Source: a virus (lineage: Duplodnaviria; Caudoviricetes). From it: a DNA stretch of 64,000 nucleotides. Under the pieces are notes generated by a model. The model searched no databases. It was not told where the DNA came from and was given only the letters and a program-made list of their open reading frames with translations. Shown here piece after piece: positions 18,428 through 37,121 of the stretch. How positions within the stretch are numbered: the stretch's first letter is position 1; each line of letters opens with the position of its first letter. A program made the position numbers and the translations under genes. Where the stretch lies: IMG/VR virus record IMGVR_UViG_3300033555_000001, positions 246,729-310,728 of that record; one strand, written 5' to 3'.

Positions 18428-18754
18428 ATGCAAAAACAGCGTGGAATGATTCTAATTGTAGTCTGCACAGCCGCGCTGTTGGTAACACTGGTATTTGGTA
18501 TTTCAATTGTCTCGTACCTGAGCGCTGCGAACTATGGTGATCGCACGGAGCAGGCAATTAAAGCCGCGGAGTTTAACAGCAATCAACCGCAATTGCTAGA
18601 CCAGCAGCAGGCCTATCAGACTGCACTCAACAGTGTATGGCAAGGTTTCTGGCTCAGACTTGCTGGCTATCCTAAGATTAACACTGCAAGCACAGACACA
18701 ACTATTGACACGTTTAAGGCCAAGCGTGATACTGGTATTCAACCGGCGAACTAG
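18428..18754 (+). CDS. membrane-anchored LemA-like phage protein (short)
   Basis: N-terminal TM segment; NYG.R.E and AY.TAL.S.WQGFWL.LAGYPKI. Confidence 0.55.
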   Translation: MQKQRGMILIVVCTAALLVTLVFGISIVSYLSAANYGDRTEQAIKAAEFNSNQPQLLDQQQAYQTALNSVWQGFWLRLAGYPKINTASTDTTIDTFKAKRDTGIQPAN

Positions 18755-27699: not shown

Positions 27700-28110
27700 G
27701 TAATAACGAGTTTCATCATTGGAATAGTAAAACAGCGTAAACTCAGTTTTTGAAAAGTTGAACAGGACGGGAGAGTCGGAGCTCCCCACCTCCACCAAAA
27801 GCGCTCTAGTAAGTCTGCAACGCGATCAGACTTTGAAGGCGGGAAACTTGGACTAAGCGTGACGCCTCTAACAATTCTCTTAAGGGATTGATTTTGGGAG
27901 AGCCAAGTACTAGAGTGTTTTTGATGGGGGTGAATTGGAATCGACTGGCAAAATAGTAAACTACAGAGCGCTCGAGAGATGACCGACGTAATCGGCATAA
28001 AAACCTTAAATGCAAATGATAGCGCATTTTACGGAGACACACGCCTAGCAGCGTGATGCCCGCGAGGCTAACCACCTTGTCACCGAACGGTAGGTAAGAA
28101 GTTTTACCGC
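27700..28110 (+). ncRNA. ssrA: circularly permuted (two-piece) tmRNA
   Basis: Acceptor piece ends CACCTCC-A-CCA at 27797, upstream of the coding piece starting GGGGGTGAATTGGAATCGAC at 27926. Acceptor stem has G3.U70. Tag frame 28012-28056 reads ANDSAFYGDTRLAA*. The outer ends are approximate. Confidence 0.88.
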
Positions 28111-29771: not shown

Positions 29772-29847
29772 GCCGATGTAGCTGAGCGGTTACAGCAGAG
29801 GATTCTAAATCCTAAGATCCCCGGTTCGAATCCGGGCATCGGCACCA
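29772..29847 (+). tRNA. amber suppressor tRNA (anticodon CUA)
   Basis: Canonical 76-nt cloverleaf; anticodon arm GAGGA-TT-CTA-AA-TCCTA; T loop TTCGAAT; A73 and CCA. Confidence 0.92.
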
Positions 29848-30377
29848 TAGTTTAATTATAGCGAGGTCTATTATGCTTACCACCACAGCAATTGCCTTAG
29901 TTTATTTTGTATTCGTCACTGCGGTTTATTTCTGTATTATTGCCGTGATAGTAAAAGATGGTCGAACTAACACCACGCCCACAAAACGAAAATATAACTC
30001 AATCATCTTTTTCGCTGTTACCGTGTTCTATATTGTGTCAATGATTAGCAGCACGCTAACTTTCTGAGCAATTTAAACTTTAATTACGTTATAAGATATC
30101 TAAGAGACTCCATGTTAGAAGATCCTAAACACGACATACCAGCTGTAAAGACACGGGCAACTTTAGTAACAGTAAGCAAAATTAAAAGTGCTGCTCTCAG
30201 ACGCACTGTTATTGTTTTAACCTTTGTGCCAATGCTGACTGCTAATATAGTGTGTGTTGGTATTGCTGCGGTGAAGGGGCTGTTCAGAAATATAACTGTG
30301 GTATTTTCTACTGCGGTAAAACACTGGTAATTTTACTACTTTAAAATATAAGACGCTATTTTATACACGGGAAATCA

Positions 30378-30791
30378 ATGAGCGTTATAGCTAACTTTGT
30401 GAATCGTTTATTTCCGTCTTTGGCGCATCATTTTGCTTCATCGTGCACGCTGCAGGTTTCAAAAGCAAATGCTCAGCAGCTTGAGGCTCTTGATATTGAC
30501 AAGATACACATTGAATACCGGCCAATCATTGGCGCTCTAGTTCCACGCTTTTATTGGGGTGAAGGTGAAGGTGATCACTTTCTACCCGACGGTTATTTGC
30601 ATTTGCCGACGGTTCCAATGATCATAACGCGGAAGGGGCAAAACAGCTATTCAGTCCGCGCTTTTAAAGAACATCAATCGATGAGCGCTGTGGAGTTTAA
30701 TGGTTTTATCGCTCAGCTGATTATAGATGCAATTACCACGATCAATTATAAAAATTACCTGTTCGACAAACACGCGACAAAAACCTGGTAA
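30378..30791 (+). CDS. hypothetical protein
   Basis: 137-aa ORF. Confidence 0.55.
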   Translation: MSVIANFVNRLFPSLAHHFASSCTLQVSKANAQQLEALDIDKIHIEYRPIIGALVPRFYWGEGEGDHFLPDGYLHLPTVPMIITRKGQNSYSVRAFKEHQSMSAVEFNGFIAQLIIDAITTINYKNYLFDKHATKTW

Positions 30792-30961
30792 TTTTCCCGG
30801 ACGGCTCTAAACTTACCGGCGCAACTGAACAAAAAATGGATACGGTGTTTGCGGTTACAAAATAACCAGTACCTGTTAGTAACCTGAACTAATTTTATTT
30901 GATTCTGAAAACTGTATTAATATACAAGAGTACTAAAGATTAACCAACCACTGGAGTTAAC

Positions 30962-31312
30962 ATGAAGCACTAGATTGAAAATCAGAAAACATATTTGTAC
31001 GCAATCTCTCGCCGAGATATTCCTCTCGCGCAACAGGGAATTCAAGCAGCTCATGCTGGAATTGAATTTGCCTATCAGTACGGTCGCCCTGCCGATCACC
31101 ATTCCTCGTATATTCATTTAACTGTTCGCAACAAAGAACACCTTGAGCATCTCTGTGCGCAGCTTTTGGCGTGCGGCCAGCGTACGGCTGAATTCCACGA
31201 GCCATATCAAGATTGGGGCTTAACCGCAATTGCAACAATTTTAACAGAAGAAAATCGCCATTTACTTAAAGGCCTACAACTGTGGCGCCTACCAACTCAG
31301 GAGCAATCATGA
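30962..31312 (+). CDS. Pth2-fold (peptidyl-tRNA hydrolase-like) protein with an in-frame TAG at codon 4
   Basis: GGAG RBS then ATG AAG CAC TAG ATT GAA... in frame with YAISRRD....Q.IQAAHA...EFHEP...GLTAIA. Confidence 0.75.
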
Positions 31313-31749
31313 ACTATACAATTGTAGCACACAGGGAAACTGATTCAGGTACTGACCGACGCGGTGATTACTATCGTAACCCTGGCGATTTTTATTTTAG
31401 AGCATTTCAAGAAGATCAAAAAGGCGAGTTCATCAGCAAGTGGGCTGAGTTTAGTCTTGAAAATAATCACGATGATTTACACGTTATGATTAACGGGCTG
31501 ACAGAGGATGAATTCGCCGGCAGCACTGATCCGCTGGATGTTGCCAAATATTCTGAATTTGCAGCCATTACAGAATTAATGTATCTGAAGCGAGCGGTGC
31601 TTCATCATGAGCGTGCAGCAAAAGAAGCCGGTCGGCTGGGCCGTGAGACTGCTCAAAAAGCGGTGAATGAAATTAAAAACAAGCTTGTTGCTCGCCAACA
31701 GGCTGAAGCTGAAATAATCAGATTACAAAACTCGCTGAGGAACCTATGA
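31309..31749 (+). CDS. hypothetical protein
   Basis: AGGAG RBS, ATGA overlap. Confidence 0.7.
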   Translation: MNYTIVAHRETDSGTDRRGDYYRNPGDFYFRAFQEDQKGEFISKWAEFSLENNHDDLHVMINGLTEDEFAGSTDPLDVAKYSEFAAITELMYLKRAVLHHERAAKEAGRLGRETAQKAVNEIKNKLVARQQAEAEIIRLQNSLRNL

Positions 31750-32297
31750 AAATTACACTGAACCAAAATCCGCTGCACGCAGTTGTAGAACTAGATGAGC
31801 GTGAAATTGCAGCACTTAGACAAAAGCTGATCATTGCTGATCTCGAAGACAGATTGGCTGAAGCCAGCTTTAGATTAACGGACGGAAAATATTTTAACCT
31901 CGAACTAGCTCGCAAATCTACCAAGCTTAGCTTTCTAGATGAAGACGGTGCTACCGGTGAACACGCTCAGGAGATTGATAGGCGCCTCAAGTACTATGTT
32001 GAGGCACTCACTGAGGTGCACGGTGGTGACTGCACGTGTATTCCGGCCTCATGTATGAAGTGCCATGCTGAAGAGATGCTTGGAATTGACACCGCACCGT
32101 ACAGCAAGCACACTGGTAATTCTATTCAGTCTGCGTTTAGTAAACCTGGCACTACACTTGATGAAGCAATTGAGGTACTCCGCACGCCCATTGAGCCACA
32201 GAAAGGTTATGAACAGCACTTGGCGCGGTGGAATGTTCAAAGGGCACAGGCACTAATTGCCTTACTTGAACACCAGAAAATGCTATCTGTCACCTAA
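31746..32297 (+). CDS. hypothetical protein with a Cys cluster (GDCTC...C.KC)
   Basis: 183 aa; GAGG RBS. Confidence 0.7.
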   Translation: MKITLNQNPLHAVVELDEREIAALRQKLIIADLEDRLAEASFRLTDGKYFNLELARKSTKLSFLDEDGATGEHAQEIDRRLKYYVEALTEVHGGDCTCIPASCMKCHAEEMLGIDTAPYSKHTGNSIQSAFSKPGTTLDEAIEVLRTPIEPQKGYEQHLARWNVQRAQALIALLEHQKMLSVT

Positions 32298-32396
32298 TGC
32301 CTCTATAACGCGCTGTTTAGAAAAAGGACTATAATGTTATCTACAACAATATACCACGTATCACACATCACAAAAAATACCACAGGGAGAAATAGC

Positions 32397-32678
32397 ATGC
32401 AATTTACCACAAGAGAAGAATACCTGGCAGCAGTTGCGGCATGGAAACTAGAATACGCCAGTCTCGGCGCTGAAATACGTGCTCACCGAGAAGAGTTTAA
32501 AATGACCCAGCGTATCTTGTCAAGAGATGGAAGTAATTTTGGGCGCAACTTTGTGGCTATGTGGGAAGCCACCCTAAAAATGGGCGGGCTGCGGCAAAGA
32601 GCGACCGAGCTTCTTGAAGACCGGGCTGCCAGTAAAAAGGCCTCTTATTCAGCGTACCTACAAAGTCTGCTGCCGTGA
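32397..32678 (+). CDS. hypothetical protein
   Basis: GGAG RBS before ATG 32397. Confidence 0.65.
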   Translation: MQFTTREEYLAAVAAWKLEYASLGAEIRAHREEFKMTQRILSRDGSNFGRNFVAMWEATLKMGGLRQRATELLEDRAASKKASYSAYLQSLLP

Positions 32679-36327: not shown

Positions 36328-36413
36328 GTTGTTTTAGCTTAAGAAGAGCGTCGGGTCTGCCAATATTATTGGTGGACCGGGAGGAGTAGGTTCAAGTCCT
36401 ACAGACAGCACCA
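36328..36413 (+). tRNA. tRNA-like RNA with an extended anticodon arm
   Basis: Acceptor stem, D arm, canonical T arm and CCA are present; about 12 extra nt follow CTGCCA. Confidence 0.5.
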
Positions 36414-37044: not shown

Positions 37045-37121
37045 AGCGGGTTAGAGAAGAAGTCATCTCGCCGGCCTCATAAGCCGGAAATCACGTGGAG
37101 CATTTCCCGTACCCGCTACCA
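37045..37121 (+). tRNA. tRNA-Met(CAU)
   Basis: CCGGC-CTCATAA-GCCGG; degenerate T arm; CCA. Confidence 0.75.

Follow-up and report, generated by a model that had tools for sequence, protein, structure and literature searches.

In recoded phages, which include crAss-like, Lak and gut jumbo phages and read TAG as Gln (code 15) or TGA as Trp (code 4), in-frame stop codons are decoded by a suppressor tRNA of the phage. The literature on these phages concerns genome-wide reassignment, and translation of their stop-bearing genes has been proposed to depend on the phage suppressor tRNA (bioRxiv 10.1101/2021.08.26.457843). "Orphan" suppressor tRNAs are also carried by jumbo phages that use the standard code, such as XacN1, RsoM2USA, Atu_ph07, ME3 and GAP32. 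The XacN1 authors sought targets of their suppressors and found none (PMC5852040), and the RsoM2USA and Atu_ph07 papers offer only general remarks on suppressor tRNAs. Here we analyze a 64,000-nucleotide stretch of DNA (the window) that makes up the end of a 310,728-bp virus record of about 87% completeness from an ice metagenome (IMGVR_UViG_3300033555_000001). The window contains an amber suppressor tRNA with the anticodon CUA, tRNA(CUA), and, 1.1 kb downstream of it, a gene for a protein with the fold of peptidyl-tRNA hydrolase 2 (Pth2), whose fourth codon is an in-frame TAG that we call the gate. Comparison with related phages suggests, with a probability that we put at about 0.75, that the two form a two-part translational switch in which suppressor read-through is tied to a specialized Pth2-like enzyme in a standard-code jumbo phage. 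The tRNA and the phage are of the same kind as in the published orphan-suppressor accounts, but unlike in those accounts, a conserved gated gene is now identified in each of the phages named.

The locus differs from recoded phages in that the standard code is kept and TAG still terminates translation, and in that a conserved gate was identified in a single gene only. Moreover, the stop is never found beyond codon seven, and the product of the gated gene belongs to a tRNA-acting class of enzymes and is no structural or lysis protein. The locus resembles prfB, the gene of release factor 2 (RF2), as a termination or recycling gene with an early in-frame stop whose decoding would set the protein level. 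However, prfB relies on a +1 frameshift and responds to its own product, whereas here the frame is unchanged in all loci and a separate tRNA would be sensed. Its first codons are also reminiscent of the lambda bar minigenes and of other minigenes of 2-4 codons, which likewise consist of a Shine-Dalgarno (SD) sequence, an ATG, a few codons and a stop. The bar minigenes cause peptidyl-tRNA drop-off and are genetically tied to peptidyl-tRNA hydrolase. Unlike them, the mini open reading frame (mini-ORF) of the gated loci shares its frame with a downstream enzyme gene in every case, and both the type of its stop and the purine that follows are conserved. Drop-off of the lambda bar type with a stress feedback had been proposed in an earlier reading of this DNA made from the sequence alone (the sequence-only reading); it is not specifically favored, because the mini-ORF varies both in length, from 1 to 6 codons, and in its final sense codon.

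The early stop and its conservation

The early stop noticed in the sequence-only reading is confirmed. An SD sequence precedes an ATG, two further sense codons and the TAG, and the frame from ATG 30962 continues through the gate into a 105-codon Pth2-fold ORF (30962-31312; Table 1). Counted from the same ATG, the full-length read-through product has 116 aa. The TTG at 30995, which a standard gene caller would pick as the start, is in frame with this ATG and lies seven codons past the gate; as had been stated before, no Shine-Dalgarno-like run precedes it. The "promoter-like region" placed upstream of the gene was not recovered, a simple sigma-70 scan giving no match on the + strand between 30800 and 30960. 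The phage itself is a jumbo myovirus whose tail sheath shares 55% identity with its counterpart in Ralstonia phage RsoM2USA and about 50% with the sheaths of XacN1, Xoo-sp13 and Stenotrophomonas phages. The sequencing runs on record that contain the stretch are contig-level DNA only, with none as RNA.

A nucleotide search of the phage collection with this locus returned no match, and homologues came from a protein-level search. The resulting set, 61 loci from IMG/VR and metagenomes plus cultured phages, comprises 46 distinct sequences. Among cultured phages, tblastn with the read-through product gave matches about 35-41% identical in jumbo phages that infect Erwinia, Yersinia, Serratia, Cronobacter, Pectobacterium, Xanthomonas, Ralstonia and Acinetobacter, most of them at sites where GenBank annotates no gene or a truncated one. 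All 46 distinct loci share the same arrangement: an SD-like run at the equivalent site, an ATG, 0-5 sense codons, an in-frame TAG or TGA, and then 9-14 codons to a conserved arginine (Arg17). The proteins are 32-76% identical to that of this genome. Seven cultured phages belong to this set, and their gated starts read ATG TCT CAC TAG ATT (fHe-Yen9-04), ATG ACG CAC TAG AAT (BF), ATG GCA CAA TAG AAT (GAP32), ATG ACT TAG ATT (ME3), ATG GCT CAC TAG AAT (XbC2), ATG TTG TAG ATT (RsoM2USA) and GAGGA-N8-ATG AAG TAG ACC (XacN1), the last lying four codons before the annotated ATG of ORF364. In ORF364 (L090:1757-2596) the Pth2-like domain forms the C-terminal half, and the gate stands at the start of the fusion. 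The domain fused ahead in XacN1 and in some metagenomic relatives (P0152, P0177, P0184, P0255) measures about 160 aa and belongs to no Pfam family.

Homologues with a sense codon in place of the stop, or with a start equivalent to the TTG, were the two outcomes that the sequence-only reading had set against itself; neither holds, and the gate is kept in the 46 loci. An apparent Gln at the gate in database homologues arises because code-15 gene callers read TAG as Q: the three that were checked all have TAG in their DNA and translate only "with_TAG=Q". The pattern is lifted above chance by comparative data and not by a single locus. Across the loci, no downstream start codon is conserved; the distance from the gate to the first canonical in-frame start varies from 0 to 95 codons, some loci have no such start, and in many a start there would cost the fold its strand 1 and helix 1. 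The base on the 3' side of the gate is a purine in 46 of 46 cases (A in 42, G in 4), whereas of the 42 TAGs that really terminate long ORFs of this genome, 10 are followed by A (Fisher p 4.5e-11 for A, relatedness of the loci being uncorrected). A 3' purine, and especially A, reportedly favors amber suppression in E. coli, as Bossi in 1983 and Miller and Albertini in 1983 are said to have found.

One clade departs from this arrangement. At L028:5310-6300 (also in L027, L029, L067 and L075), a gated N-terminal stub of 46 residues, MKA-stop-VPSKSYLY..., lies about 560 nt ahead of a full-length copy that has no gate and whose N-terminal third is divergent, an arrangement that looks like a partial replacement or duplication. 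The bacterial genome collection yielded one phage-like contig of 2.7 kb, which shares the gate and has a tRNA(CUA), and one distant Bacteroidetes homologue that is ungated.

The genome is not recoded. In code 11, 88% of it is covered by ORFs of 100 aa or more, and a sense reading of TAG adds no more coverage than one of TGA or TAA; the comparison comes out the same way around the TGA-gated loci. TAG terminates 42 of 291 long ORFs genome-wide and 8 of 46 in the window. The TAGs at 18752, 27676, 40388 and 46857, which had been cited as examples of genuine terminators, are indeed the ends of frames 112-264 codons long. In-frame TAGs flanked on either side by coding sequence show no clear excess over TAA and TGA, and the most striking of them (G000 204525) proved to be a true terminator ahead of the tail sheath gene. 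A genome scan for ORFs preceded in frame by an SD sequence, an ATG and a stop a few codons later, a check suggested by the sequence-only reading, gave no enrichment of TAG (3/175, compared with 11/367 for TAA and 4/297 for TGA) and left two unconfirmed candidates. These two lie outside the window, at G000:C1:210444-210812 (+) and 125464-125153 (-), and have an SD-ATG, a few codons and an in-frame TAG, their number being as by chance; the ORF at 210444-210812 has no PHROG family.

The suppressor tRNA and its match to the stop codon

ARAGORN, Rfam and the sequence itself agree on the canonical CUA tRNA with A73 that had been described upstream of the gene. It is the single tRNA(CUA) among the 25 tRNAs of the genome, and its Rfam score is the top tRNA score within 28-43 kb. 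The tRNA has a canonical cloverleaf with U33, A37, A38, discriminator A73, an encoded CCA and a variable loop of 5 nt, and its anticodon loop reads UU-CUA-AA; the cloverleaf, CUA anticodon, U33, purine 37 and CCA end that are expected of an amber suppressor tRNA are thus all present. A Y33-anticodon-A37-A38 loop is found in all of the more than 40 related suppressor tRNAs that were compared. A 7-base anticodon-loop pattern was tried as a suppressor search and dropped as too unspecific. The description of the tRNA body as Phe-like did not stand, as no clear parent and no close match were found among the other 24 tRNAs of the phage, the best being a tRNA-Thr at 67%.

The type of gate follows the anticodon of the suppressor. 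Every TAG-gated locus in which a suppressor tRNA was seen has a tRNA(CUA), usually 0.1-2.8 kb upstream on the same strand and often as two in tandem; in one complete TAG-gated genome the tRNA(CUA) is located 55 kb away from the gated gene. Both TGA-gated metagenomic loci, L024 and L025, have a tRNA(UCA). These two do not group in the protein tree: each is placed apart from the other among TAG-gated relatives, and 0 of 200 bootstrap trees unite them. Agrobacterium phage Atu_ph07 is a third, fully independent TGA/UCA case: its canonical Pth2 gene begins AAAGG-N7-ATG-5 codons-TGA and is annotated from an internal ATG, and its only suppressor is a tRNA(UCA), also present in the published account (PMC6102473), 232 kb from the gated Pth2 gene. 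At such a distance, physical hitch-hiking cannot explain the match between stop and anticodon. Mismatched pairs of gate and suppressor were not seen among the loci examined, and in this genome the TAG gate is cognate to the tRNA(CUA). The co-occurrence of gated homologues with suppressor tRNAs, which had been put forward as a check, is thereby borne out, with TAG accompanied by CUA and TGA by UCA.

In many of the related loci (L013, L016, L033, L040, L049, L055 and L028), CUA tRNAs form a tandem pair whose two members differ, with A73 and a G1-C72 pair in one and G73 together with C1 or U1 in the other; they may be charged with two different amino acids. The contig of L017/L018 has, at L079:1148-1223 and 240 nt upstream of the gated gene, a tRNA(CUA) whose T-arm is aberrant (GTAGGCA loop); it scores 43 bits with Rfam and is missed by ARAGORN.

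The Pth2-like protein, its paralogue and the neighboring genes

The AlphaFold2 model of the gated protein has a predicted local distance difference test (pLDDT) value of 93 and a predicted template modeling score (pTM) of 0.85, and its mean pLDDT over the first ten residues, gate included, is lower at 79. In a Foldseek search of the PDB, the top 13 matches are Pth2 structures or the Pth2-like Atu0240, with template modeling (TM) scores of 0.64-0.72. A profile of the family matches PDB Pth2 chains with E 1.6e-6, and PF01981 is matched by 30 of 70 family members (best E 7e-9); taken singly, the protein of this genome matches no Pfam family. The features shared with Pth2 (1wn2, 2zv3, 3erj, 1xty and human Bit1/PTRH2, 1q7s) are the α/β fold, with a TM score of about 0.7, and the conserved residues Arg17, Asp19, Gln28, His31, an acidic residue at position 80 (Glu80) and Thr88. 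Glu80 aligns with the catalytic acidic residue of the Pth2 D-A-G motif, presumably Asp86 of S. solfataricus Pth2, and the column holds E in 64 and D in 6 of the 70 members, a conservative change. Unlike Pth2, the gated protein lacks the lysine of the GK motif; it has a two-residue deletion, with Gln24 aligned at that site, and the lysine column of the 70-member family contains Q in 38, H in 10, D in 7 and A in 5. This lysine, which we take to be Lys18 of S. solfataricus Pth2, was reportedly identified as catalytic in that enzyme by Fromant et al. in 2005.

The phage has a second gene of the Pth2 family, a canonical and ungated one, which stands directly after the main tRNA cluster and whose product aligns with the gated family with an hhalign E value of 2e-6. 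Because the lysine is lost and a canonical Pth2 is encoded in the same genome, the gated protein would be a specialized paralogue and not the general peptidyl-tRNA hydrolase of the phage. Within the tRNA-rich region, two Rfam tRNA calls, at 36328-36410 and 37045-37118 (+), are not in the ARAGORN list; conversely, ARAGORN lists several tRNAs that Rfam misses at the gathering score, the cluster being made up of unusual tRNA-like genes.

A two-piece (permuted) transfer-messenger RNA (tmRNA) is encoded upstream of the suppressor tRNA, an arrangement found in 7 of 12 related loci. Its tag frame, ANDSAFYGDTRLAA, ends in UGA. The usual stop of tmRNA tags is UAA. Among the loci with a tmRNA that were compared, the tag stop is never the stop read by the suppressor of the phage, which is weak evidence. 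The tmRNA and the canonical Pth2, both absent from the sequence-only reading, change the functional reading of the locus, and their linkage points to a phage-borne termination and ribosome-rescue toolkit. Genes for a release factor, SmpB or Pth1 were not found in the genome, of which the record represents about 87%.

The three small ORFs that separate the tRNA from the gated gene have no tblastn match in related loci, and the 137-aa ORF matches neither Pfam nor PHROG; they are probably filler and not parts of the module. The 146-aa gene that overlaps the end of the Pth2-like gene is found immediately downstream of it in 14 related loci and has no Pfam or PHROG family. It is the first of three downstream genes (31309-32678, +; 146, 183 and 114 aa) that are syntenic in 14-22 related loci and belong to no known family. 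The 183-aa protein weakly matches a portion of the NpmA 16S rRNA methyltransferase model (E 0.005).

Table 1. Positions of the gated gene, the suppressor tRNA and surrounding features in the window.
Feature	Position	Strand	Details
Shine-Dalgarno GGAG	30953-30956	+	5 nt before the mini-ORF ATG
Mini-ORF start, ATG AAG CAC (Met-Lys-His)	30962-30970	+	read from the sequence
Gate, in-frame TAG followed by A (TAG ATT)	30971-30973	+	read from the sequence
Pth2-like body, 112 codons plus TGA	30974-31312	+	stop TGA at 31310-31312
Amber suppressor tRNA	29772-29847	+	ARAGORN, 76 nt, anticodon CUA; Rfam RF00005, 70.3 bits
Canonical ungated Pth2, 133 aa	42237-42638	+	PF01981, 109.9 bits, E 1.9e-32; RKGK lysine and DAG motifs
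Two-piece (permuted) tmRNA	27734-28056	+	Rfam RF04321, 104.9 bits, E 2e-21; no ARAGORN call
Three small ORFs (64, 72, 137 aa)	29873-30791	+	between the tRNA and the gated gene
Downstream gene, 146 aa	31309-31749	+	own AGGAG; ATG overlaps the TGA of the Pth2-like gene (ATGA)

The proposed switch and rival explanations

In the proposed switch, ribosomes would start at the SD-ATG at 30962 and reach a UAG at codon 4. Where release factor 1 (RF1) wins, Met-Lys-His alone would be made; where tRNA(CUA) decodes the UAG, the 116-aa Pth2-fold protein would result, and protein output would thus report suppressor activity relative to termination. That the full-length protein needs the early stop to be decoded by the phage suppressor is very probable, because the gate is conserved, the gate codon covaries with the anticodon and no downstream start is conserved. 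On the same comparative data, the read-through requirement in the interpretation given by the sequence-only reading stands, its Phe-like tRNA body excepted. The enzyme would probably be made only when the suppressor tRNA is active. The gate lies in the N-terminal tail, before the first β-strand, so that the identity of the inserted residue should not matter, and a failed attempt would cost a tripeptide only. Once made, the enzyme may act on a tRNA ester that is linked to suppressor action. Its substrate could be the peptidyl-tRNAs of read-through ribosomes that stall, a job that it would share with the adjacent tmRNA, or it could be the acylated suppressor tRNA itself, which would create a negative feedback; under either option, enzyme supply would scale with suppression. 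Both functions, peptidyl-tRNA clean-up and suppressor feedback, are much less likely than the gating step. Tentatively, the paralogue could also be imagined to act specifically on acylated or peptidyl suppressor tRNA, so that suppression would induce its own antagonist and settle at a set point, making the locus a homeostat or a sensor of termination capacity; we consider this unlikely.

Several findings weigh against the switch. The covariation is supported by two or three TGA/UCA events only, and several short TAG-gated contigs have no suppressor tRNA in the sequence available. In the clade with the gated stub, the full copy is ungated and lies beside CUA tRNAs, though the stub persists upstream of it. 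The catalytic lysine of Pth2 is replaced (Gln24, in a variable column), which makes hydrolase activity uncertain. About 14% of the long ORFs of the phage end in TAG, and an efficient suppressor should therefore have side effects. Finally, 28 of the 46 gates are followed by ATT or ATC, weak bacterial start codons, so that reinitiation is possible at those loci. AUU is known as such a start codon from infC, for instance. In that case the mini-ORF would act as a leader, after which ribosomes restart at the adjacent codon or nearby, for which the TTG past the gate in this window would also be suited, and the tRNA would merely be a neighbor. The remaining 18 gates, however, are followed by AAC, AAT, ACA, ACC, GTT, GTC, GTG or AGC, and a leader needs no fixed frame, whereas the ATG is in frame in all loci. 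Reinitiation also does not predict that the stop type tracks the suppressor anticodon, least of all in Atu_ph07 with its distant tRNA, and we regard it as quite improbable.

The same covariation bears on the possibility that the stop is a plain attenuator, which would hold a potentially toxic tRNA esterase low through near-cognate leak while the suppressor serves another purpose. Early stops do leak at a low level, and an excess of an enzyme from a class that acts on charged tRNAs could be harmful. Nevertheless, a weak SD sequence or a weak start codon would serve attenuation equally, and an attenuator explains neither the change from TAG to TGA with the anticodon nor the purine past the gate, which leaves this explanation highly improbable. 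Partial recoding of the code 15 type, with the gate as one of many reassigned TAGs as in crAss-like and Lak phages, would agree with the presence of a suppressor tRNA, which is typical of recoded phages (bioRxiv 10.1101/2021.08.26.457843; PMC13037316), and with the choice of code 15 by gene callers for short contigs that carry the gated gene. It is made extremely unlikely by the 88% ORF coverage in code 11, by the TAGs that close long frames and by the lack of enrichment of in-frame TAGs or TAG-gated starts. A sequencing or assembly error at the TAG, or a decaying pseudogene, might be suspected in a single metagenome assembly and for a gene that is unannotated in several GenBank phages; with the same stop in 46 distinct sequences from isolates and metagenomes, and with an intact, conserved body of confident fold, such an origin is refuted in practice.

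A search of the searchable literature turned up reports on these suppressor tRNAs, none naming a target, and no account of this conserved and probably real switch, which is apparently unpublished. New here are the case in this genome, the TGA/UCA pair in the canonical Pth2 gene of Atu_ph07, the targets in XacN1 and RsoM2USA, the purine rule relative to real terminators, the ungated canonical paralogue and the recurrent linkage to a tmRNA. Suppressor tRNAs are common in large standard-code phages, and the open question of their purpose now has a concrete target, which is present in the laboratory-grown phages XacN1, RsoM2USA, Atu_ph07, GAP32, BF, ME3 and XbC2. The finding also corrects GenBank records in which the gene is absent or cut short. 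As proposed, the locus would be a natural "lock and key" translational switch, akin to the amber-codon designs of synthetic biologists. If the homeostat existed, a standard-code phage could, together with the adjacent tmRNA, run a controlled read-through of stop codons, whose level might be used against the host or be a first evolutionary step towards recoding. The cassette itself may be an intermediate stage towards full reassignment of a stop codon.

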